From contig NC_002937.3 in assembly GCF_000195755.1 (NCBI RefSeq), forward strand, positions 150,001 to 182,000: 32,000 nt of DNA. Direction: 5' to 3'. Position 1 is the first letter of the stretch, and every line of letters begins with the position of its first letter. The stretch is from Nitratidesulfovibrio vulgaris str. Hildenborough (GTDB lineage Bacteria > Desulfobacterota > Desulfovibrionia > Desulfovibrionales > Desulfovibrionaceae). The notes under the pieces were generated by a model that worked only from the letters and a program-made list of their open reading frames with translations, searched no databases and was not told where the DNA came from. Position numbers and translations under genes: made by a program. Positions 1,761 to 23,733 of the stretch are shown here, piece by piece.

Positions 1761-2046
1761 GGTTTTCCTGTTATCTTGAGGATTGCGCCCATACGCTGCG
1801 CTGTCGTGCCGTTGCCTGCATGGGCGTATCCGGTTTGCCATGCCGCGTTCATCCATCCGGTTGCGGTCAGTCTGCCGACCGGCGGTCGACCGGGTGCAGC
1901 CCCGCAGCCCCCCCGCAGCCTGTGGCCACCCGTAGCTATCCGCAATCGCGCCTTGTACCGCCCTCGGGCCGTCCTTGGGCCGCCCTTGGGCAGGAGGTCG
2001 GGGAGGTTTCGGTGCGCATCGGACAAACCCCGCCCGGATGTCTCTG

Positions 2047-3411
2047 CTAGATGTCGATGGAAAGCTCTTTGAGCTTGAGCCACAACTGCTTGCGGCTGAT
2101 ACCGAGCAGGTCGGCAGCCTGTATCTTGCGGCCCCCCGTGCGTTCCAGCGCCTCCATGATGCGACGTCTCTCGAAGCGTGCCACCCCTTCGGCAAGGGAC
2201 GCCGGGGTGTCGCCCGCGTCATCGTCGCAGGCGGGTGGCATGGACTGCGTGGCTGCGCGGATGCGTTCAGGCAGGTGCCCCACGTGAATCTCCCCTTCGG
2301 TGCAGAGCAGTACGGCATGTTCCACGGCGTTGCGCAGTTCACGCACGTTGCCGGGGTAGTCGTAGGCCAGCAGGGCAAGGCGGGCCTGTTCCGAGAGCGT
2401 GGCCTGACGTTCGTGCAAGGCGCAGAATCGCCGCAGGAAGCGTTCGGTGAGAAGGGCCACGTCGCTGCCACGTTCGCGCAGGGGCGGCAGCGTCACGGGC
2501 ACGACGTTGATGCGGTAGTAGAGGTCTTCGCGGAATCTGCCGTCGGCTATGGCCTCCTCGAGGTTCCGTGCCGTGGCGAACACCGTGCGCACGTTGACCT
2601 TGCGCGGGGTGTTGCCCCCCACGGGGGTCACCTCCTGGTCTTCCAGCACACGCAGCAGCTTCGCCTGAAGGGGCAGGGGCATCTCGCCCACCTCGTCGAA
2701 GAACAGCGTACCGCCGTCGGCAGCCTCGAACTTGCCGATGCGCGCCTGCTGGGCACCGGTGAAGGCTCCCTTCTCGTGCCCGAACAACTCCGATTCGAGC
2801 AACTGTTCCGGCAGTGCCGCGCAGTTGATCTTGATGAACGGCCTGTCGCGGCGCTTGCTGCGGCGATGCAGCGCACCCGCCACCAGTTCCTTGCCCGACC
2901 CGCTGGGGCCGAGCACGAGTACCGGCACACAGGCGTCGGCGAGGGCGCGGATGCGGTCGAAGACCTTGAGCATGGCCGGGCTTTCGCCGATGAACTCGCC
3001 TTCTTCACGTTCTCCGCGCAGTCTGTCGTTCTCGCGCTTGAGGTCGAGAAAGCGGAAGAACCGTTCGACGGCGATGAGCAGCCCGTCACTCTGGAAGGGC
3101 TTGCACAGGAAGTCGAAGGCCCCGGCCTTGATGGCCTGTACGGCCAGTTCCACTTCGGGGAAGGCAGTGATGAGGATGACGCCCGTGCCCGGATGCATCT
3201 CGCGGATGCTGTCGAGCAGTTCCATGCCGCTCATGCCGGGCAGGCGCAGGTCGGTGATGACGAGGTCGAAGGGTCGTCGGTGCAGGGCGTGGCGTGCCGC
3301 CTCGGCGGTGTCCGCCGCGGCGACCTCGTAGCCTGCGCGCGAGAGCGCGTGCTGCATGCCGAGGCGCATGGAGAGTTCATCTTCGACGAGAAGTATGGAG
3401 TGGGGGGTCAT
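2047..3411 (-). CDS. sigma-54-dependent response regulator (NtrC family: receiver + AAA+ + Fis-type HTH)
   Basis: Receiver domain (ILLVEDE, VITDLRLPGMSG, KP). AAA+ Walker A GPSGSGKE. Sigma-54 contact loop GAFTGA in FGHEKGAFTGAQ. C-terminal HTH AADLLGISRKQLWLKLKE. The ATGA start/stop overlap with the upstream kinase gene implies an operon. Confidence 0.95.
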   Translation of the reverse strand: MTPHSILLVEDELSMRLGMQHALSRAGYEVAAADTAEAARHALHRRPFDLVITDLRLPGMSGMELLDSIREMHPGTGVILITAFPEVELAVQAIKAGAFDFLCKPFQSDGLLIAVERFFRFLDLKRENDRLRGEREEGEFIGESPAMLKVFDRIRALADACVPVLVLGPSGSGKELVAGALHRRSKRRDRPFIKINCAALPEQLLESELFGHEKGAFTGAQQARIGKFEAADGGTLFFDEVGEMPLPLQAKLLRVLEDQEVTPVGGNTPRKVNVRTVFATARNLEEAIADGRFREDLYYRINVVPVTLPPLRERGSDVALLTERFLRRFCALHERQATLSEQARLALLAYDYPGNVRELRNAVEHAVLLCTEGEIHVGHLPERIRAATQSMPPACDDDAGDTPASLAEGVARFERRRIMEALERTGGRKIQAADLLGISRKQLWLKLKELSIDI

Positions 3412-5072
3412 GGCGTCTCCCTTGCGAGTGGCAGGCTGATGACAAAGGTGGCACCGGCGGGGTGGTCTTGCCCTGCGTGTTGTCCGCCGTGCGCGTGCGG
3501 GGTGGTGTCCGGGGGCGTGTCGGTACAGGCTCCCTTGTGGGCTTCGGGGCAGCCCTCGGGGGATGCCTCTGCGGATGGTGCCTCCGGTGCGGGCGGCGAC
3601 TGTGCAGGCGGCGTCTGGATGAAGAGTGCGGAATCGGAGGGCCCCGCCTCGTCATGCGGCGGTTCCAGTGTCAGCGTGCCGCCGTGCCGCATGACGATGG
3701 ACGCCGACACGGCAAGGCCGAGTCCTGTGCCGCTGCCTGCGGGCTTGGTGGTGAAGAACGGGTCGAAGATGCGTTCGCGGTGCTCTTCGGCCACACCGGA
3801 ACCCGTATCCTGCACTTCGATGCGAACGTCGTCTCCGGCGCGACGGGCCGTGATGGTGAGCGTGCCACCGTCGGGCATGGCATCGGCCCCGTTGAGGACG
3901 AGGTTGAGCAGCACCTGCCCCATCTTGTCGGGGTCGATGGCAAGGGGGGGCACGTCGGGCGAGACATGGCGCACTACGTTGATGCGCCTGCGTTGCAGCG
4001 TGTAGTCCACGAGGGCCAGCGTGCGGTCGATGAGGTCGTCGGCACGCGCCTCGCGCACGGAAAGCGGGGCGGGGCGCGCATAGTGCATGAGTTCGCGCAC
4101 GATGCGCCGTATCTTTTCGAGTCCGTCGTCGATGACCTCGATATGCTGGCGGCGGGTGGCTTCGTCCATGCCGCCTTCGGTGAGGTTGCGGAAGCAGAGG
4201 ATGACCCCGCCGAGAGGGTTGTTGATTTCATGGGCCACGCCCGACGCCAGCTGGCCGATGGTGGCAAGCTTCTCGGTCTGGTACATGCCCTCCACTGCCC
4301 GCAGGCGTTCGCGTTCGGCGTCGCGCAGCCTGCGCGTCATCCACATGAAGCTGGCCTGCAACGTGCCTATCTCGTCATCGCGACGGGGCAGGTCGGGCAG
4401 CGGGCCCGCAAGGTCGCCGCGTGCGGTGATGTCGTTCATGGTGCGCGTAAGGGCGGCGAGGGGGCGCGCGAAGTGCCGCCCCGCATACCAGACCCCGGCG
4501 AGGGCCACCAGCAGCAGTACCGCGCTGATGCCCAGTACCTCGCGGCGCAGGGCGTCGAGGCTGCGGTACATCTCGCGCAGCGAGAAGCCGATGCGGCACA
4601 CCCCCCAGCGTTTGGAACCGATGGACAACGGCACCGCGATGTCCAGATGGGGCCCGAGGTTTGCCGTGTCCTGTCTCGATACCGTCGGAAAAGTCGCCGC
4701 CAGTGCCGTGCGGGTCGTCTCGTCGGTGTGCCGCCTGCCGTATTCGCGCAGGTTGTTGTGCGCGATGACGCGGCCTTCGGGGTCGAAGACCATGAAATAG
4801 ACGATACGCGTGTCGAGGCGCATGACGTCGGCCACGAAATAGTCGAGATAGTCCGACATGCCCGACGTGTCGACCATGCCGAGGTCTTCGTAAATACGGG
4901 CGTTGGTGAACAGCACCGCCGAGATGCGCGCGATGCCCATGCCCTGTTGCGTGGCGTTGCGCAGCAGCAGGTCCTCTTCGCGCTGGATGGTCACGAAACT
5001 GAGCACACCCGCGAAGATGGCGATGCACGGCACCGCGAAGAGGATGAACTTGGCCTGCATCCCGAATCTCAC
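3408..5072 (-). CDS. sensor histidine kinase (periplasmic sensor, HAMP, HisKA, HATPase_c with a low-complexity insert)
   Basis: Two TM segments flank a roughly 150-aa extracytoplasmic region. HAMP-like segment (RPLAALTRTMNDI...DEIGTL), H-box SGVAHEINNPLGG, N box LNLVLNGADAM, G boxes DTGSGV and GTGLGL. GTG start overlaps the upstream stop (GTGA); ATG at 5060 is an alternative. Confidence 0.9.
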   Translation of the reverse strand: MRFGMQAKFILFAVPCIAIFAGVLSFVTIQREEDLLLRNATQQGMGIARISAVLFTNARIYEDLGMVDTSGMSDYLDYFVADVMRLDTRIVYFMVFDPEGRVIAHNNLREYGRRHTDETTRTALAATFPTVSRQDTANLGPHLDIAVPLSIGSKRWGVCRIGFSLREMYRSLDALRREVLGISAVLLLVALAGVWYAGRHFARPLAALTRTMNDITARGDLAGPLPDLPRRDDEIGTLQASFMWMTRRLRDAERERLRAVEGMYQTEKLATIGQLASGVAHEINNPLGGVILCFRNLTEGGMDEATRRQHIEVIDDGLEKIRRIVRELMHYARPAPLSVREARADDLIDRTLALVDYTLQRRRINVVRHVSPDVPPLAIDPDKMGQVLLNLVLNGADAMPDGGTLTITARRAGDDVRIEVQDTGSGVAEEHRERIFDPFFTTKPAGSGTGLGLAVSASIVMRHGGTLTLEPPHDEAGPSDSALFIQTPPAQSPPAPEAPSAEASPEGCPEAHKGACTDTPPDTTPHAHGGQHAGQDHPAGATFVISLPLARETP

Positions 5073-6007
5073 GGCTGTGCCTCCTGCGTATCCGGCGACA
5101 GCCCCACCCTGCGCTCCATGGTGCGGAACATCTCGTACACCGAGGCGTCCACCGTGCCGAATCCATGGCGCAGCACTTCGTTCCAGCCTTCCGAGAGTCG
5201 GGCCACGTCGGGGGCGTCGGGGTCGATGCCAAGCAAGGCGTCACGCAGGGCGTTGCGTACCTCTTCGGGGACATCGGCCCGCGCCACGATGATGAAGCCG
5301 GGGAAGGGCTGCGTGGCGTCCACGACCTTGAGTCCCACCCCGAGGTAGCGCACGGCCATGGGTTCGCCAAGGGCCCCGGCGTCGTATTCACCGCGAAGGA
5401 CGGCACGCGCCACGGCATCGTGCGTTGTCAGGTTGGCATAGGTGGCGAAATCTTCGAGGGTGATGCCGTGTTCGGTGAGGTGGTCGAGGGGCGCGAGGTA
5501 GCTTGCGGTGGAGTCGGGCGACCCGAAGGCGAAACGCTTGCCCTTGAGGTCGTTCGGCGAGCGGATGTCCTGCCGGTCTTCGCGTGCCACGATGAGGCTT
5601 CGCGTCGTGGGGGTCCCGTCCCGGCCCAGGACGGCACAGAGCGGTATCAGCGGGGTGCGGCCCCGTGCCTGCAGGAAGGTGCGGCCCGCCAGCAGCGCGA
5701 TGTCGAGGGTGCCCGCCTCCAGCCTGTCCACGATGGTCGAGTAGCGGTGTTCCAGTACCAGTTCGAAGCGCCATGGCTGGCGTTCGGCGAGAAAGTCGAG
5801 GAACGGCTGGTACTGCTGGTAGATGACCAGCGGGTGATTCAGCGTGATGACGCCGAAGCGGTAGGCGCGGGGCTTCGTGCCCGTTCCATTGACCTGCTGC
5901 TGTGTTCCGGCTTCGGGCGGGGGCGTGGCGGCATGCGCCGGGGCTGCGCGAGACGACGCGACCGCGAGGCACAGCGCGATGAGAATCAGGGCAAGGGGGC
6001 GGGCCAT
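5069..6007 (-). CDS. PhnD-like (phosphonate/phosphite-type) periplasmic substrate-binding protein, probable kinase co-sensor
   Basis: Signal peptide MARPLALILIALCLAVASSRAAPAHA. Body (YRFGVITLNHPLVIYQQYQPFLDFL, LEAGTLDIALLAG, FAFGSPDSTASYL) resembles PhnD-family binding proteins. GGAG lies 6 nt before the ATG. Overlaps the kinase gene start. Confidence 0.8.
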   Translation of the reverse strand: MARPLALILIALCLAVASSRAAPAHAATPPPEAGTQQQVNGTGTKPRAYRFGVITLNHPLVIYQQYQPFLDFLAERQPWRFELVLEHRYSTIVDRLEAGTLDIALLAGRTFLQARGRTPLIPLCAVLGRDGTPTTRSLIVAREDRQDIRSPNDLKGKRFAFGSPDSTASYLAPLDHLTEHGITLEDFATYANLTTHDAVARAVLRGEYDAGALGEPMAVRYLGVGLKVVDATQPFPGFIIVARADVPEEVRNALRDALLGIDPDAPDVARLSEGWNEVLRHGFGTVDASVYEMFRTMERRVGLSPDTQEAQP

Positions 6008-6056
6008 ATGCGACTCCGGCCCGAAGGGGCCAGTGGGCCTTCGGCCCGTCGCGGGC

Positions 6057-6500
6057 CTAGGCCATGATGGTTATCTTGCAAGGGCTCGAACGGTTGAGGC
6101 GTTCGGCGAGATGCGGGGTGGTGAAGTCCATGCCCCAGCTGTGCGGGGGCAGCACTATCTCGTCTGCGCCGTTCTCGGTGGCGGCGGCAAGTACCTCGCG
6201 CAGGGGTTCGCCCCATCGCACCCCGAGCAGCGCGTGGACGCCGCTCTTGCGCGCCCGCTCGACGAAACCGCCCAGACGCGCCTCGCATTCGCTCTCGCCC
6301 TGCTCGCGCACGTAGTTTAGGAAGGTCTCCTTGTCACTCTGCGTGGCAAGCTGGTCCACCAAGCCATAATGCATGAGGTCGGTATCCACAACATGCAGGG
6401 CCATCACGCTGCCGCCTTCGCGGCGGAGGGTGGCGATGACGTGGTCTTCGGCGTGCCGTGCCTCTACGGAACCGTCGCTGCCGAGAAGGATGCGTCGCAT
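6057..6500 (-). CDS. universal stress protein (UspA family)
   Basis: 147 aa. RILLGSDGS start and a C-terminal ATP-binding-like region (AAATENGADEIVLPPHSWG) are typical of the UspA fold. AAGGAG lies 6 nt upstream of the ATG. Confidence 0.8.
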   Translation of the reverse strand: MRRILLGSDGSVEARHAEDHVIATLRREGGSVMALHVVDTDLMHYGLVDQLATQSDKETFLNYVREQGESECEARLGGFVERARKSGVHALLGVRWGEPLREVLAAATENGADEIVLPPHSWGMDFTTPHLAERLNRSSPCKITIMA

Positions 6501-6519
6501 GGCGTTCTCCTTGTGTGGT

Positions 6520-6547
6520 GCCGCCGCCGGAGGGTTCCGGCGGCGGC
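6520..6547 (-). terminator. GC-only 12-bp stem-loop between the mini-ORF and usp; possible U-tract-less terminator or processing/stability hairpin
   Basis: GCCGCCGCCGGA (6520-6531), loop GGGT, TCCGGCGGCGGC (6536-6547) form a perfect inverted repeat. No U tract follows on either strand. It ends about 10 nt from the usp Shine-Dalgarno. Confidence 0.4.
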
Positions 6548-6581
6548 GTTGTGCTGGCGATGCTGGTGATGCCCAGTGATG

Positions 6582-6680
6582 CTAGGCGAGGAACTTGGCG
6601 AGGGTGATCACGGCGAAACCGAGGAAGACGACGATGGCGTCCTGACGGCGCGACTTGGAGAGGGACTTGAAGAACGACAT
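6582..6680 (-). CDS. 32-aa single-TM mini-protein (MSFFKSLSKSRRQDAIVVFLGFAVITLAKFLA), not in the supplied ORF track
   Basis: My translation of the complement of 6680..6582. The ATG lies 12 nt after the YeiH stop, with AAGGAG overlapping that stop and 7 nt of spacing. Nearly all third codon positions are G/C, as in neighbouring genes. Basic N-terminus followed by a hydrophobic helix. Confidence 0.6.
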   Translation of the reverse strand: MSFFKSLSKSRRQDAIVVFLGFAVITLAKFLA

Positions 6681-6692
6681 GGTTATGCTCCT

Positions 6693-7775
6693 TTAGCTCA
6701 TGAAGAGGAGGACAGCGGCAAGGGCGAGGGCGGCCTTGAGGCCAGCTACGCCGAAGCCGAACAGGAACCCGTTGAGGCCCGCAGCGCGCAGGTCGGAAAG
6801 ACGGGTGGTGAGACCGATGCTGGCGAAGCCCAGCAGGAAGGCCCATTCCATGAAGTGCTTGGCCATCTTCACTTCGGGCTTGGTGAGAACGCCCGCCGTG
6901 TTGAGGCACACGATGGCGAGGAAGCCCAGGACGAACAGCGGGAACTTGTCGCGGATCATCTGCCACTTGTTGATCTTGGCGACTTCGTTGCCCTGTTCGG
7001 CTTCCTGTGCGGCGGCCATGATGGCGAGCATCAGCACCACGAAGGGCAGGAAGACCACGCGGCCGATGTTGTAGATGCCCGCGACGATGCCCGCTTCCTG
7101 ACTGAAACCGAAGCCCGCGGCCAGCACCTGCGCCGAGTTGACGATGCCGACGCCCGCGAAGGCACCGAACTGCTCGGGGGTGAGGTTGAACACCTTGCCG
7201 ATGAGCGGGAAGGCGATGAGCGCCAGCAGGCCGAACATGAGCACCACGGCGATGGAGTAGGCCATGTCCTCGTTCTTGGCCTTGACCGCGGGGGCGATGG
7301 CGATGGTGGCGGAAACGCCGCACACCGACATGCCCGCCGCGAGACACGCGGCAAGAGGCGTGGACATGCCGACCTTGCGGCACAGCCACATCATGACCAG
7401 CGCCGTTCCGAACAGGAACACGGCGATGAACACCAGCGCCTGTGCACCCACTGAGACAAGGCCAGCCAGCGAATAGCTGGAACCCATGATGACGATGCCC
7501 GTCTTGGTCATGATGGTCGAGTAGCGCAGCCCCGGCTGGAACACGGCGGGAACGCCCACGGTGTTGCGGATGATGATGCCGAAGATGATGGCGAGGATGA
7601 AGTCCTTGAGCGAGAGATAGGTCTTGAACAGCGGATAGGCTTCAAGCTTGGGTGCCACGAAGCTGGCGACGAGGGCCACCGCACAGACCAGCAGCAGGCC
7701 GGGAAGGCTCTCCGTCACGGCCCGTGCGAAACTCTGCTGGGCTTCGACAGGCTGGGAGATGACGTTCTGGGACAT
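6693..7775 (-). CDS. yeiH: YeiH/UPF0324 (putative sulfate exporter, PSE family) membrane protein
   Basis: 360-aa polytopic membrane protein whose length and pattern resemble the YeiH family. AGGAG lies 7 nt upstream of the ATG. Preceded by a sigma-54 promoter. Confidence 0.8.
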   Translation of the reverse strand: MSQNVISQPVEAQQSFARAVTESLPGLLLVCAVALVASFVAPKLEAYPLFKTYLSLKDFILAIIFGIIIRNTVGVPAVFQPGLRYSTIMTKTGIVIMGSSYSLAGLVSVGAQALVFIAVFLFGTALVMMWLCRKVGMSTPLAACLAAGMSVCGVSATIAIAPAVKAKNEDMAYSIAVVLMFGLLALIAFPLIGKVFNLTPEQFGAFAGVGIVNSAQVLAAGFGFSQEAGIVAGIYNIGRVVFLPFVVLMLAIMAAAQEAEQGNEVAKINKWQMIRDKFPLFVLGFLAIVCLNTAGVLTKPEVKMAKHFMEWAFLLGFASIGLTTRLSDLRAAGLNGFLFGFGVAGLKAALALAAVLLFMS

Positions 7776-7811
7776 GGGACACTCCTGAGGGCAAAAGTTT
7801 ACCTTGCCATG

Positions 7812-7827
7812 AGCAAATGGAGTGCCA
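7812..7827 (-). promoter_or_regulatory. sigma-54 -24/-12 promoter (TGGCAC-TCCAT-TTGCT)
   Basis: Complement of 7827..7812 matches TGGCAC-N5-TTGCW at all conserved positions. The GC of the -12 box is 38 nt upstream of the yeiH-type ATG. Confidence 0.8.
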
Positions 7828-7902
7828 TGCCTTTTAGGTGTTCAATCACAGATGGTTACATCTTCGATGTCGTGTTTCTCGTGTGTGTTTGCGGGAAGGG
7901 AA

Positions 7903-7973
7903 TGGAACGGTTCCACCAACGATGTTCCTTTGAGGGAACATGTTCCTGTTCGGGTACGCAGTCTGAAGGAACC
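7903..7973. promoter_or_regulatory. array of GGAAC/GTTCC half-sites; candidate enhancer (UAS) for a sigma-54 activator
   Basis: TGGAAC-G-GTTCCA (7903-7915), TGTTCC-N6-GGAACA (7923-7940), GGAACATGTTCC (7935-7946), degenerate GTTCG (7948-7952), GGAAC (7968-7972). The array lies 76-146 bp upstream of the -24 box. Confidence 0.6.
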
Positions 7974-8212
7974 TGAGCCCATCCTCGCTCCTGCCATGGC
8001 TTTGTGGTAGCGATAGGCCAAGGTGTATGACGGGATGTGAAGGTGGGCCTTCGTACAGCGGCATCCGGTGCAGGGTGTCACGGGACACCGGGCGGTAGAC
8101 CGGGTGCGGAATCTCGCCGGAACACGTTGCAGGCCGCATCACGCCAGCCTTCACGGGCATGACCTGAAGCCCCGCACCGTCCTGTTTCGAAGCCGTCACA
8201 CAGGAGCGTTGC

Positions 8213-9346
8213 ATGAAGAAACGCCTTTTCGTTCTCCTTGTTCTTTTGGGTGTGGCGAGCGCTGCGGGGTGGTACGTGACCCGGCATGCGCCCGGAGATG
8301 GCCCGGAAGTGCTGCATGGGAACATCGACCATCGGCAGGTGGACCTCGCCTTCAAGGATGCAGAACGTGTGTCCACGGTGCAAGTGGACGAGGGTGACGC
8401 CGTTGCCGCCGGGGATGTGGTCGCCACGCTGGAAACGGAGCGCCTCGACCTTGAGATTGCCCGTTCCCGTGCCACGGTGCGGGCACAAGAGGCCGTCCTC
8501 GCCCGTCTTGAAGCCGGGTCCCGCCCGCAGGAGATTCGCCGTGCGGAGGCCGACGTGGCGGCGGCGGCAGCCGATGCGGTCAATGCCCGTGCCGTTCATG
8601 CGCGCATGGCCGCGTTGCTCGCCGTCGGGGGGGTGGCCCCGCAGGATGAGGAGAACGCCCGTGCCGCGCGTGATGTGGCCGAGGGCCGCGCCGCGCAGGC
8701 CAGGGCCCAACTCGCGCTGGTGCGCGAGGGGCCGCGTTCCGAAGACATCGATGAGGCGCGGGCCGCACTGGCGGCGCGCCGTCAGGAACTGGCGGTGCTC
8801 GAGCGGCGGCGTGTGGAGAGCGTGCTCGTCGCCCCCACGGCGGGTGTGGTGCGCAAGCGCCTTCTCGAACCGGGCGATATGGCTGCCCCGTCGCGCCCGG
8901 TGTGCACCATCGACCTCACCGGGGTGAAGTGGGTGCGGGTCTTCGTGCCGGAGTCCATGCTTGCGACCATGGTCCCGGGGCGCGCGGCGGAGGTGTCCGT
9001 CGACGGCGCACCGGGCAAGGTCTTCGCGGGCAGGGTGGCCCATGTGGCCGCGTCTGCCGAATTCACGCCCCGCAATGTGGAGACGCCTGAACTGCGCACA
9101 TCGCTGGTGTACGAGGTGCGGGTGCTCGTGGATGACCCGGGAGGGCTGCTGCGACTCGGCATGCCCGCCACGGTACGGCTGGTGTCCCTCGCTCCTTCTG
9201 CAGCCTCTTCGGGTGGAGACGTGAACGCCTCCGACAGCGGGCCACTTGCGAGCAACAGGTCACGTGCGATGCCGCACAGGGGGGACGCTGGCCAGAGCGC
9301 TGCTGCGGCGAGCGGTGCGGCGCATGGCGGGGGGCACGATTCGTGA
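8213..9346 (+). CDS. HlyD-family membrane fusion/periplasmic adaptor protein (YbhG-like)
   Basis: N-terminal anchor MKKRLFVLLVLLGVASAAGWYV. Coiled-coil Ala/Arg-rich centre and beta-barrel-like C-terminal part, then a low-complexity tail. AGGAG lies 6 nt upstream. The stop overlaps the next start (GTGA). Confidence 0.85.
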   Translation: MKKRLFVLLVLLGVASAAGWYVTRHAPGDGPEVLHGNIDHRQVDLAFKDAERVSTVQVDEGDAVAAGDVVATLETERLDLEIARSRATVRAQEAVLARLEAGSRPQEIRRAEADVAAAAADAVNARAVHARMAALLAVGGVAPQDEENARAARDVAEGRAAQARAQLALVREGPRSEDIDEARAALAARRQELAVLERRRVESVLVAPTAGVVRKRLLEPGDMAAPSRPVCTIDLTGVKWVRVFVPESMLATMVPGRAAEVSVDGAPGKVFAGRVAHVAASAEFTPRNVETPELRTSLVYEVRVLVDDPGGLLRLGMPATVRLVSLAPSAASSGGDVNASDSGPLASNRSRAMPHRGDAGQSAAAASGAAHGGGHDS

Positions 9347-12300
9347 CCCGTCGTCAGGGCCACGGCAAGGCACATGAAGTCCCTCGCGCGGTGTGCACGG
9401 TGCAAGGCGAAGGGGCTGCGCTCCTGTGCCGGGGGCTGGTTCGGGGCTTCGGTTCCGGCAAGGCGCGTGTCCGTGCCCTTGATGGTGTCACCGTATCACT
9501 CGCGAGAGGCACGGTGACAGGCCTCGTGGGGCCGGATGGCGCTGGCAAGACCACGCTCTTGCGCATCGCCGCCGGGTTGCTGGTCCCTGACGAGGGCGAG
9601 ATGACCGTGCTCGGTCATGATGCTGTGCGTGACCCGCTCGCCATCCAGTCGCGCATCGGCTACATGCCGCAGCGTTTCGGCCTGTACGAAGACCTCACCG
9701 TGGCCGAGAATCTCACCCTCTACGCCGACCTGCAAGGCGTGACGTACGAAGCGCGTAAGCGTCGCTGGCCGCATCTCATGCGCCTGACGGGGCTGGCCCC
9801 CTTCATGGACAGGCTGGCTGGCAGGCTTTCGGGCGGTATGAAGCAGAAGCTGGGCCTCGCCTGCACGCTGGTGAAGTCGCCCGACATGCTGCTTCTCGAT
9901 GAACCCACCGTAGGGGTCGACCCCCTGTCGCGCCGTGAGTTGTGGAACATCGTCCATGGTCTCGTCCGGGAGGACGGCATCACGGTACTCGTCAGCACTG
10001 CCTATCTCGACGAGGCGGAGATGTGCGACCGGGTGCTGGTGCTGGCCGGGGGAAGGGTGTTGGGTGACGCCCAGCCCGCAGACTACCTCAAGGGTCTTGC
10101 GGGATGCGCCTTTGCCGTCGCACCAGACGGGAGGCCCCCCCGCGAGGTGCAGCACGGACTGTACGGTGTGCCGGGCGTGCTGGATGCGACGGTGCGGGAC
10201 GGCCGCGTGCACCTGCTGTGCGCGACGCCCCGGACTGTGGAGAGTCTACCGGGTGACGGCCCGTTCATGCCCCGTCCGTTACGTTTCGAGGACGGTTTCA
10301 TGGCCCTCTTCCGACGCCGCAGGGCCGACGGCGAGACGCCATCTGCTCCCGACGCCGCAGGGGAGGGGCAGAACCTCACCCATGTCGCACCCGCCGAGGC
10401 CGACGTCTCTGGTGCTCTTGGTGCGTCAGGCGCGTCGGGTGGGGTGGCAGGGCGAGTCGGAAGGGCAGGGCCGGACATGTTGGAGGGGCGGGATGACCTT
10501 CGTACGGTCACACCTCCACCCGTCGGAGACGGAGATGGGGCCTCGTCGTCGGCATCGCGCCCTGTGGTGCTGGCATCCTCTGGGAATGACACGGTGACGG
10601 GGCACTCCAGTGAAGGGGCGCACCCGCATGCCGTGCCGGGACCTGCCCTTGTGGAGGTGCGCGGTCTCGAACGGCGTTTCGGGGCGTTCCGTGCCGTGCA
10701 TGACGTCTCGTTCGATGTGCGGCAGGGTGAGGTGTTCGGCCTGCTGGGGCCCAACGGCGCGGGCAAGAGCACCACCTTCAGGATGTTGTGCGGCCTGTTG
10801 CCGCCCACGGCGGGAACGCTGCGTGTGGGCGGGGTCGACCTGCGTACGGCGGCGGCCGAGGCACGCAGGCAGGTGGGGTATGTGGCGCAGCGGTTCTCGC
10901 AATATGGCGGGCTTTCGGTGCGCGAGAACCTCGACTTCTACGCCGGGGCCTACGGGCTGCGGGGGGCGCGTCGCAACGAGCGCATCCTCTGGGCGCTGGA
11001 GGAGATGGGGCTGGCCCCGTGGCGGGATACCGCAGCGGGGACGCTGCCGCTTGGGCACAGGCAACGCCTTGCGCTGGCGTGTGCGCTGCTGCACGAACCG
11101 CGCATCCTTTTTCTGGACGAGGTGACCTCGGGCGTGGACCCTCTGGCGCGCCGCGCTTTCTGGCGTCGTATCACGGGGCTTGCGCGGGACGGGGTCACCA
11201 TCATCGTCACGACACATTTTCTGGAAGAGGCGGAGTACTGCGACAGGCTGGCAGTGCTGGCAGGGGGTGAACTGCTGGCGCTGGGGACACCCGACGACGT
11301 ACGCGCGCTTGGCGGCGGAACGTCCATCGAGGAGGCGTTCATCACGCTGGTGGAACGCCGTCGTGCGTCGCCGCAGGGTGGGGCGCCAGCCGGGGAATCC
11401 ACCTCGGGGGACGCCGCTGTTGTTCCGGACTCTCTTGGTCTTGAGGGGCCGCAAGGGGAGACGACGGGCCTGTCGTCCTCTCCGGGGACGTCTCCGGAGA
11501 CGTCCCCGGCACGGTTGTCACCACCTTCGCACGATGACGCGCCGTCTTTCACGGTATGTCCGGCATCGTCGCGTCCGGGACCGTCGCATCCGGGACCGTC
11601 CGTTGACGGCGCGGTGTGTCCTGCCATGGAAGGGGCGGGAGGGGCTGAACGGGCTGAGCGGGCCGCGACACGTGCGAAGGACGATGTCTCGCCGTTGCAG
11701 GCCTATCTGATGCGGATGCGCGGGCTGCTGGTGAAGGAGGCGTTGCAGATTGTGCGCGACCCCAGCAGCATAGCCATCGCCCTCGTCATGCCCGTGGTGC
11801 TGCTTCTGCTCTTCGGCTACGGCGTAAGCCTCGACGCGCGCAACATCCCCGTGGCGGTGGTGCTGGACGAGCGCAGCGACGAGGCCGAGTCGCTGGCTGC
11901 GCGCTTCCTTTCGGGAACCACCTTCAAGGGGGCGGTGTACCGGGATGCGGCGGCGGCCCTCGAGGATTTCCGTCAGCGACGAGTGGAGGCCATGGTGCGT
12001 GTCCCCGAAGGGTTCGCCCGCGGTCTGCAAGCGGGAGGCACCCCGGTGGTGCAGCTGGTGGTCAACGGTGTGGACGCCAACAGGGCGCGCCTCGTGATGG
12101 GCTACGTGAACGGGGCATGGCAGGGGTGGCTTGCCTCGCGGGCGACGGGCAGGCCCGGCTACCCGTCGATGGTCACGATGCAGGATGACGGCACCCCGCT
12201 GCGGGGAGGGCCGCCCGTGAACGTCAGTGCGCGCGTGTGGTTCAACCCCGAGGCTGAAAGCCGCAACTACCTCGTGCCGGGGCTGGTGGTGCTGGTGATG

Positions 12301-12858
12301 ACGCTCATCGGGACACTGCTCACGGCACTGGTCATGGCCCGCGAGTGGGAACGGGGGACGATGGAGGCGCTGCTGGTGACCCCGGTGCGCATCGGCGAGT
12401 TGCTGGTGGGCAAGCTGCTGCCCTACTTCGTACTCGGCATGGCGGGTATGGGGCTGTGCACCTCGTTGGCATTGTGGCTGTTCGACGTGCCATTGAGGGG
12501 CTCGGCACTCGTGCTGCTTGGCATGGCCTCGCTCTTTCTTCTGGCGGCACTGGGGATGGGGCTGCTCATCTCCGTGCTGGCGCGGAACCAGTTCGTCGCC
12601 GGACAGGCTGCCATCCTTGTGGCGTTCCTCCCGGCCTTCTTCCTGTCGGGTTTCATCTTCGACCTCGCAGCGGCCCCCGCGCCCATCCGTGCCGTGTCGC
12701 ACCTCATCGCAGCGCGGTATTTCGCCTCGTCACTCAAGACCATCTTCCTCGCGGGCGACGTCACGGCGGTGCTGCTGCCCGACGCATTGGCGCTTGCCAT
12801 CCTCGCCACCGTGCTGCTGGGCCTTGCGCGGCGGCGCATGCACAAAAGGCTGGAGTAG
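9343..12858 (+). CDS. ABC transporter with two ATPase domains fused to an ABC-2 permease domain (YbhF-YbhS-like fusion)
   Basis: NBD1 has Walker A GPDGAGKTT, signature LSGGMKQKL and Walker B LLLDEP. NBD2 has Walker A GPNGAGKST, a degenerate signature LPLGHRQRL and Walker B LFLDEV. The C-terminal ~380 aa form a six-TM ABC-2-type permease. It is one uninterrupted 1171-codon frame. Confidence 0.85.
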   Translation: MTRRQGHGKAHEVPRAVCTVQGEGAALLCRGLVRGFGSGKARVRALDGVTVSLARGTVTGLVGPDGAGKTTLLRIAAGLLVPDEGEMTVLGHDAVRDPLAIQSRIGYMPQRFGLYEDLTVAENLTLYADLQGVTYEARKRRWPHLMRLTGLAPFMDRLAGRLSGGMKQKLGLACTLVKSPDMLLLDEPTVGVDPLSRRELWNIVHGLVREDGITVLVSTAYLDEAEMCDRVLVLAGGRVLGDAQPADYLKGLAGCAFAVAPDGRPPREVQHGLYGVPGVLDATVRDGRVHLLCATPRTVESLPGDGPFMPRPLRFEDGFMALFRRRRADGETPSAPDAAGEGQNLTHVAPAEADVSGALGASGASGGVAGRVGRAGPDMLEGRDDLRTVTPPPVGDGDGASSSASRPVVLASSGNDTVTGHSSEGAHPHAVPGPALVEVRGLERRFGAFRAVHDVSFDVRQGEVFGLLGPNGAGKSTTFRMLCGLLPPTAGTLRVGGVDLRTAAAEARRQVGYVAQRFSQYGGLSVRENLDFYAGAYGLRGARRNERILWALEEMGLAPWRDTAAGTLPLGHRQRLALACALLHEPRILFLDEVTSGVDPLARRAFWRRITGLARDGVTIIVTTHFLEEAEYCDRLAVLAGGELLALGTPDDVRALGGGTSIEEAFITLVERRRASPQGGAPAGESTSGDAAVVPDSLGLEGPQGETTGLSSSPGTSPETSPARLSPPSHDDAPSFTVCPASSRPGPSHPGPSVDGAVCPAMEGAGGAERAERAATRAKDDVSPLQAYLMRMRGLLVKEALQIVRDPSSIAIALVMPVVLLLLFGYGVSLDARNIPVAVVLDERSDEAESLAARFLSGTTFKGAVYRDAAAALEDFRQRRVEAMVRVPEGFARGLQAGGTPVVQLVVNGVDANRARLVMGYVNGAWQGWLASRATGRPGYPSMVTMQDDGTPLRGGPPVNVSARVWFNPEAESRNYLVPGLVVLVMTLIGTLLTALVMAREWERGTMEALLVTPVRIGELLVGKLLPYFVLGMAGMGLCTSLALWLFDVPLRGSALVLLGMASLFLLAALGMGLLISVLARNQFVAGQAAILVAFLPAFFLSGFIFDLAAAPAPIRAVSHLIAARYFASSLKTIFLAGDVTAVLLPDALALAILATVLLGLARRRMHKRLE

Positions 12859-12861
12859 GGC

Positions 12862-13974
12862 ATGGAGACGCTCGTCCGCATCATGGCGCTCATCCGCAAG
12901 GAGTTCCTCGCCCTGTTCAAGGACAGGCGCAGTCGCGTGGTGGTGATCATCCCTCCGCTCATCCAGACCATCGTGTTCGGGTACGCGGCCACCTTCGATG
13001 TGGAGAGGGTGCCCTGCGCCGTCATGGACGAGGACAGGAGTGGTGCGTCGCGCGAACTTCTGGCGCGGCTTGAGGGTTCACGCGCCTTCCGCGTGGCCCT
13101 CGTCGCCACGGACGCCCGCATGATGGCGGATGCCGTGGACAGGGGGGAGGTGGTCATGGCCCTGCGCATCCCGCAGGGGTTCGAGCGCGCCGTGCACTCC
13201 GGCGCGGTGACCGTGCAGGCGGTGGTGGACGGGCGCAACTCCAACACGGGCACGCTGGCGGTCAACTACCTCCAGACCGTGGTGGCGGGATACAACGAGA
13301 CGGTGCTGCACCGCATCTCCGGGGCAGGGCCTCCGGCGAATCTGGTGATGCGGGCGTGGTACAACCCCAACCTGCTCAGCCGCTGGTTCTTCGTACCGGG
13401 CATCCTCGCCATGGTCACGCTGGTGGTCACGCTGCTGGTGACGGCGCTGTCGGTGGCGCGGGAACGTGAACAGGGCACCTTCGACCAGTTGCTGGTGGCC
13501 CCGTACCGCCCTGCGGAGGTGCTGGTCGGCAAGGCGGTGCCCGGCATGGTCATCGGCCTCGTGGAGGTGACGGGCATCCTGTGCCTTGCGGTCTACTGGT
13601 TCGACGTGCCCATGCGGGGCAGCCTTCTCACGCTGTATGCGGGGCTGGGGCTCTTTCTCTTCTCGGTCGTGGGCGTGGGGCTCATGGTCTCGTCGCTGGC
13701 GGCGACCATGCAGCAGGGGTTGCTGGGAACCTTCCTGTTCACCATGCCCGCCGTCATCCTCTCCGGCTTCGCCACGCCCGTTGCCAACATGGCGGACGGG
13801 GTGCGGCAGATGACGGTGGTGAACCCCTTGCGCTACATCCTCGTCATCATCCGTTCGGTGTTCCTCGAAGGGGCCGACGCGGCGGTGCTGGCCCGTGAAC
13901 TATGGCCGCTTGCCGCCATCGGCCTTTTCTGCATGACCGTGGCGACATGGCTGTTCAGGCGCAGGGTCTACTAG
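12862..13974 (+). CDS. ABC-2 type transporter permease (YbhR-like)
   Basis: 370 aa with an N-terminal cytoplasmic segment, a large first loop, then five further TM segments. Paralogous in pattern to the C-terminal domain of the preceding gene. GGAG lies 6 nt upstream of the ATG. Confidence 0.85.
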   Translation: METLVRIMALIRKEFLALFKDRRSRVVVIIPPLIQTIVFGYAATFDVERVPCAVMDEDRSGASRELLARLEGSRAFRVALVATDARMMADAVDRGEVVMALRIPQGFERAVHSGAVTVQAVVDGRNSNTGTLAVNYLQTVVAGYNETVLHRISGAGPPANLVMRAWYNPNLLSRWFFVPGILAMVTLVVTLLVTALSVAREREQGTFDQLLVAPYRPAEVLVGKAVPGMVIGLVEVTGILCLAVYWFDVPMRGSLLTLYAGLGLFLFSVVGVGLMVSSLAATMQQGLLGTFLFTMPAVILSGFATPVANMADGVRQMTVVNPLRYILVIIRSVFLEGADAAVLARELWPLAAIGLFCMTVATWLFRRRVY

Positions 13975-17704: not shown

Positions 17705-18004
17705 ACTGCATGCCGCCCTGCCCTGTACAGATTCAAGGGGCGCGGCAAGGCGCGTCGCAACGTCTCGTCGTGGCGCAGGATATCTTTATAGCTGTAAAAA
17801 AAGCTGACACCGGGTATCGTGGGCGTTGATGGTGTGCTGTGTGTGACTTTATCATTATATTCTGGTGTGTTGCTGTTAAGACGTTAGATTGCGGGCTACA
17901 TCTGGCAAGAATGCTGACGGTGGATGCCCGGAAGGAGGTCGCAGACTTATAAAAATCTTTTACTACAGTTGGTTATGAATAAAACCATGCCTGTGGGTAC
18001 GGTA

Positions 18005-18020
18005 TGGCACACCCGTTGCT
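18005..18020 (+). promoter_or_regulatory. sigma-54 -24/-12 promoter (TGGCAC-ACCCG-TTGCT)
   Basis: Exact match to TGGCAC-N5-TTGCW, about 93 nt upstream of ATG 18112. It is preceded by the most AT-rich stretch of the window (about 17780-17990). Confidence 0.8.
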
Positions 18021-18111
18021 TTTGTGAACGCGTGTCTCCGCCGCAGGGCTGCGGCAGGGGGTGCGACACTAGGTTCCGAAACTGCGTGCAGATTTACGGA
18101 GGAGTCACGTA

Positions 18112-19359
18112 ATGGGTTTCGCAAGAGACGTATATGAATTCATGAAGGCAGGAGCCGTGGCCCACGCCAAGTGGGATATCGAGGTCTCCACGTCCATCAT
18201 CCGCAACCGCAAGAAGATGCTCATCCTGCTTGCGATGCTGGTGCCCGTGTTCCTGTTCAACTTCGCCGAAGCGGGTGCGGTGCTTGGCAGCAAGACCGCC
18301 TACGCCCCGGCCTTCTACACGACGAAGATCTTCTTCGTCTCCATCGCAGTGGGTCTTGCGGCGGGCCTCATCACCGGCTGTATCGGTGCGGGGGGTGGCT
18401 TCATCATCACCCCGGCACTCATGGCCGCGGGGGTCAAGGGCATTCTCGCCGTCGGTACCGACCTCTTCCACATCTTCGCCAAGGCCATCATGGGCACCAC
18501 GGTGCACAAGAAGCTGGGTAACGTGTCGGTGAAGCTGGCGGTGTTCTTCCTCATCGGTTCCGGTGGCGGTACGTTCATAGGCGGCGCCATCAACAAGGGC
18601 CTGTACAACAAGGACCCGCTGCTCTCCGAACTGTTCATCAGCACCATCTACGCGGTGCTTCTGGGCTTCCTCGGCTTCTACGCGCTGTATGACTTCATCA
18701 AGGCCAGCCGTGCAGGCGGCGGCGGTGACGCCCACGGCGGCGGTTCCGGCACCACGGCCATCTCCGTGAAGCTGCAGGGCATGAACGTGCCCCCCATGAT
18801 CACCTTCGACGAAGACCTCGTGCCCGGCGGCCGTCGCATCTCCGGCTGGATCGTTGCCGCAGGCGGCGTCGTGGTGGGTATCCTCGCGGCCATCATGGGC
18901 GTCGGCGGCGGCTTCGTCACCTTCCCCATGTTCGTGTACATCTTCGGCGTGTCCTCCATGACCACCGTGGGTACCGACATCCTTCAGATCATCTTCACCG
19001 CCGGTCTCGGCGCCATCGCCCAGTACGCCATCTACGGCTTCGTGTTCTACACGCTGGCCATGGGCATGCTGCTCGGTTCGCTGCTCGGCATCCAGATCGG
19101 TGCGCTGACCACCAAGGTGGTCAAGGGCATCCATATCCGCGGCTTCTACGCCGTCTCCATCATCGCGGGCTTCATCAACCGTGCCGCCACGCTGCCCAAG
19201 AAGCTGGTGGAACTGGAGATGGTGTCGCTGCCCAAGGCGTTCGTCACCAACGTCGAGTTCTTCGGCAACATCATCTTCTGGGTGGTGGTCGCCGTGTTCG
19301 GCGTGTGGGTCTTCGGTAAGTTCTTCGCCAACATAGGCAAGCTGAGAGCGGAGGCGTAA
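18112..19359 (+). CDS. TauE/SafE (DUF81) family anion exporter-like membrane protein
   Basis: Two internal repeats carry the family pattern (GCIGAGGGFIITPALMAAGV...AVGTDL and IMGVGGGFVTFPMFVYIFGV...TVGTDI). GGAGGAG lies 7 nt upstream of the ATG. Confidence 0.75.
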   Translation: MGFARDVYEFMKAGAVAHAKWDIEVSTSIIRNRKKMLILLAMLVPVFLFNFAEAGAVLGSKTAYAPAFYTTKIFFVSIAVGLAAGLITGCIGAGGGFIITPALMAAGVKGILAVGTDLFHIFAKAIMGTTVHKKLGNVSVKLAVFFLIGSGGGTFIGGAINKGLYNKDPLLSELFISTIYAVLLGFLGFYALYDFIKASRAGGGGDAHGGGSGTTAISVKLQGMNVPPMITFDEDLVPGGRRISGWIVAAGGVVVGILAAIMGVGGGFVTFPMFVYIFGVSSMTTVGTDILQIIFTAGLGAIAQYAIYGFVFYTLAMGMLLGSLLGIQIGALTTKVVKGIHIRGFYAVSIIAGFINRAATLPKKLVELEMVSLPKAFVTNVEFFGNIIFWVVVAVFGVWVFGKFFANIGKLRAEA

Positions 19360-23534: not shown

Positions 23535-23574
23535 GTTCGCCCCGTCTGTTGCCACGAGGGAACACGGGGCGAAC
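23535..23574 (+). terminator. 11-bp stem-loop downstream of the receiver gene; possible weak terminator
   Basis: GTTCGCCCCGT (23535-23545), 18-nt loop, ACGGGGCGAAC (23564-23574), followed by TCGTTGCT (a poor U tract). Confidence 0.35.
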
Positions 23575-23733
23575 TCGTTGCTGGCGTGGTACAGGCACGG
23601 TCCTGCCGCCCTTCGGGTGGCGCATAGCTGTCCCGGTGGGAAAGCGGCGCCGGGGGGTGGCGACATCCGAAAGCCTTTGTCGTTGCGCGTTCAATGGTAC
23701 GCTGTTTGCTCTCTCTTGTGCGGAGCATCATGT

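Follow-up and report, generated by a model that had tools for sequence, protein, structure and literature searches.

A predicted sigma-54 promoter and DVU0118 enhancer upstream of the UPF0324 transporter gene DVU0123 of Nitratidesulfovibrio vulgaris Hildenborough: recovery of a published site and its conservation in related loci

Introduction

DVU0123 of Nitratidesulfovibrio vulgaris str. Hildenborough, which encodes a membrane transporter, is the first gene of a sigma-54 transcription unit. The promoter is a motif at positions 7812-7827 on the minus strand of the window, that is, the whole stretch of 32,000 nucleotides analyzed here (contig NC_002937.3, positions 150,001 to 182,000 of the forward strand). 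The account as a whole, in which a sigma-54 promoter serves the DVU0123 unit and is activated from an upstream enhancer by the response regulator DVU0118 upon a periplasmic signal, is very probable. The promoter, its activator and the activator site are already known from publications of 2011 (Rajeev et al., PMC3333781) and 2015 (Kazakov et al., PMC4641369); the assignment is therefore correct and not new. Since the promoter, the palindrome, the oligonucleotide used in electrophoretic mobility shift assays (EMSA) and the coordinates are identical to those published, the finding at 7812-7827 is a rediscovery. The site is an entry of a published regulome with an activator site validated in vitro and adds nothing new in itself, but it has value as a positive control, being a true sigma-54 promoter recovered from raw sequence.

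The sigma-54 promoter upstream of DVU0123

The core promoter, TGGCACtccatTTGCT, occupies 7812..7827 of the minus strand with the -24 GG at 7826-7825 and the -12 GC at 7814-7813. Read as TGGCAC-TCCAT-TTGCT, it has no mismatches to the consensus TGGCAC-N5-TTGCW. The -12 C (7813) is separated by 38 nt from the A of the DVU0123 start codon (7775), and a Shine-Dalgarno sequence, AGGAG, is present on the same strand at 7786-7782, 6 nt before this ATG. The motif, the gap and the AGGAG are all where the original prediction had placed them. Canonical sigma-54 geometry, with initiation about 12 nt downstream of the -12 C, predicts a transcription start at 7800..7802 on the minus strand, and the 5' UTR of DVU0123 would then be about 26 nt long.

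Exact matches to the consensus are rare in this DNA, with two found in the window (the other at 18005-18020 on the plus strand) against 0.05 expected from dinucleotide-preserving shuffles of the whole window. A position weight matrix was constructed from the published sigma-54 promoters of D. vulgaris, 84 in number once the three located in the window had been set aside. The DVU0123 promoter scores 15.6 bits on this matrix and ranks third among the 64,000 window positions, and the two sites that outscore it are the two other published promoters there, those of DVU0132 and DVU0139. Its per-position P of 2.4e-6 means that about 0.001 such sites are expected on this strand of the 437-nt intergenic region, so the weight-matrix check that had been suggested for the motif came out in its favor. 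Among the 84 published promoters the site would be only mid-ranking (60th), since its spacer is atypical of D. vulgaris preference. The description of the motif as a full consensus therefore holds for the 11 canonical positions but not for the species-specific matrix.

That the motif matches only by chance or as a vestige, with DVU0123 being transcribed from a sigma-70-type promoter instead, is highly improbable. Comparable matrix scores do occur in some shuffles of the whole window (maximum 18.35 in 50 shuffles) and no in vivo start site is on record for DVU0123, but the expectation for the intergenic region itself is the very low one given above. A scan for sigma-70 promoters and terminators over 5900-8300, which includes the intergenic region, detected no sigma-70-like promoter on the minus strand, and the sole "terminator" that it reported near the DVU0123 promoter was the palindrome at 7922-7941 itself. 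The validated DVU0118 site at enhancer distance and the comparison of orthologous loci (both described below) also argue against a chance match. The IHF consensus WATCAA-N4-TTR, allowing up to one mismatch, has no match anywhere in the window, including the interval between palindrome and promoter. No Rfam family matched when the window was scanned in full at gathering thresholds, so no known riboswitch or small RNA is located in the leader or the intergenic region.

The original prediction implied that the promoter was novel for D. vulgaris, but this exact promoter is listed by Kazakov et al. (PMC4641369). Their Additional file 6 gives for DVU0123 the sigma-54 promoter CATGGCACTCCATTTGCTC at -54 with DVU0118 as regulator, and records the operon as DVU0123-DVU0121 under "Transmembrane transport". 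The published 19-mer corresponds to 7811-7829 on the minus strand of the window, with the same sequence and the same distance. Table 1 of that paper assigns DVU0118, which carries the GAFTGA motif, to the operon DVU0123-DVU0121, and Additional file 5 describes DVU0123 as a "predicted UPF0324 family transporter". It had also been stated that YeiH genes are not classically RpoN dependent. This is fair in general, as the family of DVU0123 goes unmentioned in a large survey of sigma-54 regulons, but it is wrong for D. vulgaris. In the accessible parts of the D. vulgaris literature, neither a mapped start nor expression data from an rpoN or DVU0118 mutant were found for the DVU0123 promoter, and the available text of Rajeev et al. 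(PMC3333781) describes no E. coli reporter assay for the DVU0118/DVU0123 pair.

The activator site and the intergenic region

The published DVU0118 site (site 1) is the perfect 20-bp palindrome ATGTTCC-CTCAAA-GGAACAT at 7922..7941 of the minus strand. This palindrome, ATGTTCCCTCAAAGGAACAT, starts 166 nt upstream of the DVU0123 ATG, and its center is 105.5 bp from the -24 GG. Table S9 of Rajeev et al. (PMC3333781) gives DVU_0123 as a target of DVU0118 with the site ATGTTCCCTCAAAGGAACATC at -166, which is the same in sequence and distance as the window palindrome, and the DVU0118 site at DVU0123 also appears in Additional file 4 of Kazakov et al. (PMC4641369). A degenerate second copy of the palindrome with two mismatches, at 7941..7958 on the minus strand, abuts site 1 at a distance of 18 bp and is a putative further site. 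In addition, a palindrome of the form TGGAAC-C-GTTCCA (TGGAACCGTTCCA) is found between the validated site and the promoter, at 7895-7907 on the minus strand. It has the same half-sites with a spacer of 1 nt instead of 6, and it is absent from the other loci compared.

Binding of DVU0118 to the DNA upstream of DVU0123 has been shown in vitro. Table S6 of Rajeev et al. (PMC3333781) lists the EMSA substrate CGAACAGGAACATGTTCCCTCAAAGGAACATCGTTGGTGGAA for response regulator 0118 and target 0123, which is shifted in its wild-type form but not once the motif is mutated; this 42-bp substrate matches the window exactly at 7911..7952 on the minus strand. Gene starts in Table S4 of the same study equal the window coordinates plus 150,000 (DVU0118 at 3411, DVU0123 at 7775 and DVU0125 at 8213). 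The DVU0118 peak obtained there by DAP-chip at 157622-158318 thus corresponds to 7622-8318 of the window and covers the palindrome at 7922-7941. Table S4 has two further DVU0118 peaks, 152043-152196 at the 3' end of the DVU0118 open reading frame (window 2043-2196) and 153347-153413 at its 5' end (window 3347-3413). Neither contains a palindrome, and these peaks probably represent carried-over DNA of the cloned gene and not sites of autoregulation.

The 437-bp intergenic region is common to the DVU0123 promoter and a divergent operon at 8213-13974 (plus strand), whose products are an HlyD-type adaptor, a 1171-amino-acid fused double-ATPase/ABC-2 permease and another ABC-2 permease. The intergenic region is covered in full by the DAP-chip peak, which extends 105 nt into DVU0125, as might be expected if DVU0118 at the palindrome mainly regulated this efflux operon (from 8213 onward). 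DVU0118 might also act as a repressor, since DVU0539, another activator studied by Rajeev et al. (PMC3333781), appeared in the accessible part of that report to repress one target. Either arrangement is very unlikely. The distance between palindrome and promoter is roughly constant (mostly about 100-110 bp) in loci where the upstream neighbor is unrelated, no sigma-54-like site faces the divergent gene, and no promoter motif was found for the divergent operon.

For this site the regulon of the paralogues DVU0539/DVU0946, which has usp and "membrane protein" targets, was considered and dropped, as Table S9 and Additional file 6 give the exact DVU0118/DVU0123 sequences. In Additional file 2 of Kazakov et al. 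(PMC4641369), the C-terminal 42 residues of the window activator, GVARFERRRIMEALERTGGRKIQAADLLGISRKQLWLKLKEL, are labeled DVU0539, and a different sequence bears the label DVU0118 in the table of DNA-binding domains. The window protein is DVU0118 by its coordinates, by the gene order and by the target sites alike, which suggests a label slip in Additional file 2 or in its stored text.

The DVU0123-DVU0118 gene cluster

DVU0123 (6693..7775, minus strand) encodes a 360-amino-acid membrane transporter of PF03601 (YeiH/UPF0324, "putative sulfate exporter"). It matches the PF03601 model with an E value of 4e-59 and 200.4 bits (gathering cut-off 24.5) over 301 of the 304 model positions, but scores 117.5 bits on NCBIfam TIGR00698, the YeiH subfamily, for which the cut-off is 232.6. 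DVU0123 is thus a member of the family (PF03601, TC 2.A.98) in the broad Pfam sense and lies outside the curated YeiH subfamily, and its earlier designation as a YeiH-type gene is right in the first sense and not in the second. Identical copies of the protein are encoded on an NCBI chromosome (L004) and in many metagenomes, and Nitratidesulfovibrio oxamicus is the nearest of the named species in the genome collection. The remaining genes of the cluster follow on the same strand. The small membrane peptide gene DVU0122 is described below; DVU0121 (6057..6500) encodes a universal stress protein (PF00582); and DVU0120 (5069..6007) encodes a periplasmic binding protein of PF12974, the phosphonate/phosphite family. 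DVU0119 (3408..5072) encodes a histidine kinase with the architecture sCache_3_2-HAMP-HisKA-HATPase. DVU0118 (2047..3411) encodes an NtrC-type response regulator composed of a receiver domain, an AAA+ domain with GAFTGA and a Fis-type helix-turn-helix (HTH_8). The stop codon of DVU0120 overlaps the kinase start by 4 nt, so that DVU0120 appears to be translationally coupled to DVU0119, and the stop codon of DVU0119 overlaps the activator start, also by 4 nt. The Sigma54_activat domain of DVU0118 is recognized with an E value of 1.5e-70 and GAFTGA is present in the translation; a cognate enhancer-binding protein for the promoter is thus encoded in the same cluster.

The extent of the unit downstream of DVU0121 is less certain. 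The six genes are all co-oriented with short gaps, the binding protein, kinase and activator genes overlap by 4 nt, and Table S5 of Rajeev et al. (PMC3333781) gives DVU0120-0123 as DVU0118 targets. Moreover, the scan of 5900-8300 found no U-tract terminator. These features would fit a unit comprising the whole cluster DVU0123-DVU0118, with positive feedback on the sensor genes, instead of one that ends at DVU0121. The larger unit is a reasonable possibility but the less probable one. Kazakov et al. (PMC4641369) end the operon at DVU0121, and a very stable hairpin follows DVU0122. This hairpin, located between DVU0122 and the usp gene at 6520..6547 of the minus strand, has a perfect 12-bp GC stem and a 4-nt loop (GCCGCCGCCGGA-ACCC-TCCGGCGGCGGC) and lacks a U tract; for the 81-nt segment in which it lies, the folding energy is -36.9 kcal/mol (z = -5.3). 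From its sequence, it could be an attenuator of read-through or a processing or stabilizing element for the upstream transcript. The DAP-chip peaks at the ends of the DVU0118 open reading frame look like cloned-gene carry-over and not like sites of autoregulation. Finally, in three related loci (L010, L011 and L019) the usp, binding protein, kinase and activator genes lie on the strand opposite yeiH, so that these genes must have a promoter of their own there. A unit of DVU0123-DVU0121 is the preferred reading.

Conservation in orthologous loci

To the two genomes of the published comparison, Hildenborough and Miyazaki, 18 further orthologous loci (L005-L019 and L022-L024) are added here. The order yeiH-peptide-usp-binding protein-kinase-activator is found on one strand in L005, L006, L007, L012, L013, L014, L018, L023 and L024, while in L010, L011 and L019 the sensor operon is convergent to yeiH. 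A TGG-N9-TTGC element is located 48-72 nt upstream of the yeiH start in all 12 loci in which the two-component system is adjacent, so the conservation upstream of orthologues that had been proposed as a check was borne out. A palindrome with up to two mismatches to TGTTCC-N6-GGAACA is present within 260 bp upstream of the promoter element in nine of these 12. In the window and in seven of the nine palindrome-bearing loci, one such copy has its center 100.5-110.5 bp from the GG; the palindromes of L023 and L024 are at similar offsets from the start codon. L006 has half-sites only, the nearest palindrome copy in L013 is farther upstream, and L018 has no palindrome upstream of yeiH.

Promoter and palindrome are both absent from L008, L009 and L022, where the two-component system is not nearby. 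Within the set from the genome collection, a promoter lies directly upstream of yeiH in 10/10 loci with an adjacent system and in 0/4 without (Fisher p = 0.001). In L015, from the Desulfobulbaceae, two palindromes and a sigma-54 element are situated one gene further upstream, before usp-yeiH-peptide-usp. Conservation extends to the recognition helix of the activator, which reads SRKQLWLKLKEL in the window and TRKQLWLKMKEL in L010. That promoter, enhancer, spacing and regulator vary together provides strong independent support for promoter function, and a placement kept in 12/12 two-component-system loci, with the palindrome at similar spacing in most, argues against a chance match at 7812-7827. 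The prediction of an enhancer-dependent promoter is supported by the GAFTGA activator in the cluster, the published DAP-chip peak and EMSA site, and the conserved spacing.

The small membrane peptide DVU0122

DVU0122 (6581..6679, minus strand) encodes a 32-amino-acid small membrane peptide, MSFFKSLSKSRRQDAIVVFLGFAVITLAKFLA, with a basic N-terminus and one hydrophobic helix. The gene has its own AAGGAG, and its ATG is 13 nt after the yeiH stop codon. An open reading frame of 32-33 amino acids is located directly downstream of yeiH in 18/18 orthologous loci (L005-L019, L022-L024), with the consensus ..LSKSRRQDAIV..LG......L.KF.A across loci, and DVU0122 matches no model in Pfam or NCBIfam. The peptide gene is kept after yeiH even in loci that have neither the two-component system nor the sigma-54 promoter, which suggests that the peptide acts together with the transporter and not with the sensor. 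Judging by this sequence pattern, DVU0122 may be an unrecognized small subunit of this transporter subfamily.

In eight loci from Desulfovibrionaceae metagenome-assembled genomes of gut-type lineages (L010-L014, L016, L018 and L019), a separate palindrome (up to one mismatch) and a strong sigma-54 promoter (TGGCAC/T-N5-TTGCW) accompany the peptide gene, and the distance from palindrome center to GG is 113.5-114.5 bp. The palindrome and promoter span 4260-4397 in L010, 7419-7555 in L011, 1681-1818 in L012, 3588-3724 in L013, 2967-3103 in L014, 1194-1331 in L016, 5639-5775 in L018 and 7349-7485 in L019. L012, L014 and L016 each have the peptide gene as a tandem duplicate.

Other sigma-54 sites in the window

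The second exact TGGCAC-N5-TTGCT site of the window, at 18005-18020 (plus strand), is upstream of a TauE/TSUP-family permease gene (18112-19359) and is the published DVU0132 promoter (18003-18021; PMC4641369). A published DVU0110/DVUA0057 site, TGTAAAAAAAGCTGACA, is found at 17793-17809 (plus strand), about 200 bp upstream of the DVU0132 promoter, as the published offsets predict. These offsets, -232 for the promoter and -442 for the site, place the DVU0132 start codon at 18235 rather than at the first ATG (18112). The top sigma-54 score in the window, 18.9 bits, belongs to AATGGTACGCTGTTTGCTC at 23693-23711 (plus strand), the published promoter of the histidine kinase gene DVU0139. As Kazakov et al. 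(PMC4641369) give no regulator for it, it is an orphan sigma-54 promoter. A DVU0118-type palindrome with one mismatch lies about 140 bp upstream of this promoter, at 23547-23564, and may be there by chance.

Proposed mechanism and signal

In the following account we infer the in vivo dependence on sigma-54, the point of initiation, the signal, and what DVU0123 transports and in which direction. Sigma-54 RNA polymerase would bind TGGCAC-N5-TTGCT as a closed complex. The kinase DVU0119 would phosphorylate DVU0118, the product of the fifth gene downstream of DVU0123 on this strand, and phosphorylated DVU0118 would bind the 20-bp palindrome ATGTTCC-N6-GGAACAT and the abutting weaker copy, about 105-125 bp upstream of the -24 element. 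ATP hydrolysis by DVU0118 would then remodel the closed complex and open the promoter. The transcript, starting at about 7800-7802, would cover DVU0123, DVU0122 and DVU0121, with read-through into the sensor genes possible.

The signal is probably a periplasmic oxyanion that would be sensed by DVU0120, by the Cache domain of DVU0119 or by both. The closest solved relatives of DVU0120 are PtxB (phosphite, 1e-22), phosphonate binders and the arsenic-oxyanion sensor proteins ArrX/AioX (about 1e-12). The only ABC genes near it are the divergent HlyD and ABC-2 exporter-type set, with none beside DVU0120, and no importer permease or ATPase gene adjoins the binding protein gene in the window or in the related loci; DVU0120 is therefore an orphan binding protein. 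In the window and the related loci the binding protein gene always directly precedes the kinase gene, and the order binding protein-kinase-sigma-54 response regulator is conserved in 12 loci. AioXSR systems, in which an AioX-type protein is the first component, drive RpoN-dependent genes (PMC5908839, PMC6011840, PMC4563254), and DVU0120-DVU0119-DVU0118 would be a three-component sensor of this type.

Sulfite is the central intermediate of dissimilatory sulfate reduction. In Salmonella, YeiH is the main determinant of resistance to sulfite stress, a yeiH mutant is sensitive to sulfite, and yeiH is induced by the sulfite-binding LysR regulator YeiE (PMC12880088). By analogy with this role of YeiH and YeiE, a sulfur oxyanion is a reasonable but unproven guess for the substrate of DVU0123, and the term "sulfur-oxyanion exporter" is an interpretation based on the family annotation and on the sulfite resistance conferred by Salmonella YeiH. 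More speculatively, and with a low probability, DVU0120-DVU0119-DVU0118 may be an AioXSR-type sensor of a sulfur oxyanion (sulfite or thiosulfate) whose output is a two-part transporter made up of the YeiH-family protein and DVU0122. If this were true, sulfate and sulfite reducers would have a dedicated sigma-54-gated module for sulfite homeostasis, and the acquisition of a separate enhancer and sigma-54 promoter by the peptide gene in gut-type Desulfovibrionaceae would reflect the importance of the peptide. Given the tie between YeiH and sulfite, the place of sulfite in sulfate reduction and the likeness to oxyanion sensors, the conserved regulon offers a concrete handle on the substrate of this transporter family in sulfate reducers, including gut Desulfovibrionaceae.

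Comparison with known systems

The DVU0118 regulon described in the two earlier studies (PMC3333781, PMC4641369) is the same object as the one analyzed here: the promoter at -54, the palindrome at -166, the EMSA oligonucleotide and the gene order are identical. Added to it are the conservation in about a dozen further loci with similar spacing, the separate promoter of the peptide gene in other lineages and the reading of the sensor as AioXSR type.

In its regulatory architecture the system resembles NtrBC-glnAp2, ZraSR and AtoSC, which likewise have an activator with a receiver domain, an AAA+ domain containing GAFTGA and a Fis-type helix-turn-helix, and palindromic enhancers about 100-130 bp upstream of a -24/-12 promoter. 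In NCBIfam the regulator is most similar to AtoC, NtrC and ZraR and the kinase to AtoS and ZraS, with every score below its equivalog cut-off. DVU0118 is not an orthologue of the NtrBC, ZraSR or AtoSC regulators (scores of 445 vs 714, 440 vs 559 and 363 vs 760), and the DNA motif, sensor domain and target differ.

With the YeiE-YeiH system of Salmonella and E. coli (PMC12880088) it shares a PF03601 transporter gated by a neighboring sensor-regulator. That regulator is a cytoplasmic LysR-type sulfite binder acting at a sigma-70 promoter, whereas a membrane two-component system with a sigma-54 activator is found here. No small peptide partner has been described for the enterobacterial YeiH, and DVU0123 scores below the TIGR00698 cut-off.

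The AioXSR and ArrXSR systems (PMC5908839, PMC6011840, PMC4563254) also have a PF12974 binding protein encoded beside a kinase and a sigma-54 response regulator with no importer genes. DVU0120 differs in being closer to PtxB than to ArrX/AioX, and the kinase DVU0119 has a Cache domain of its own. The target here is a transporter and a peptide rather than an oxidoreductase, and the contact between binding protein and kinase is putative in this system.
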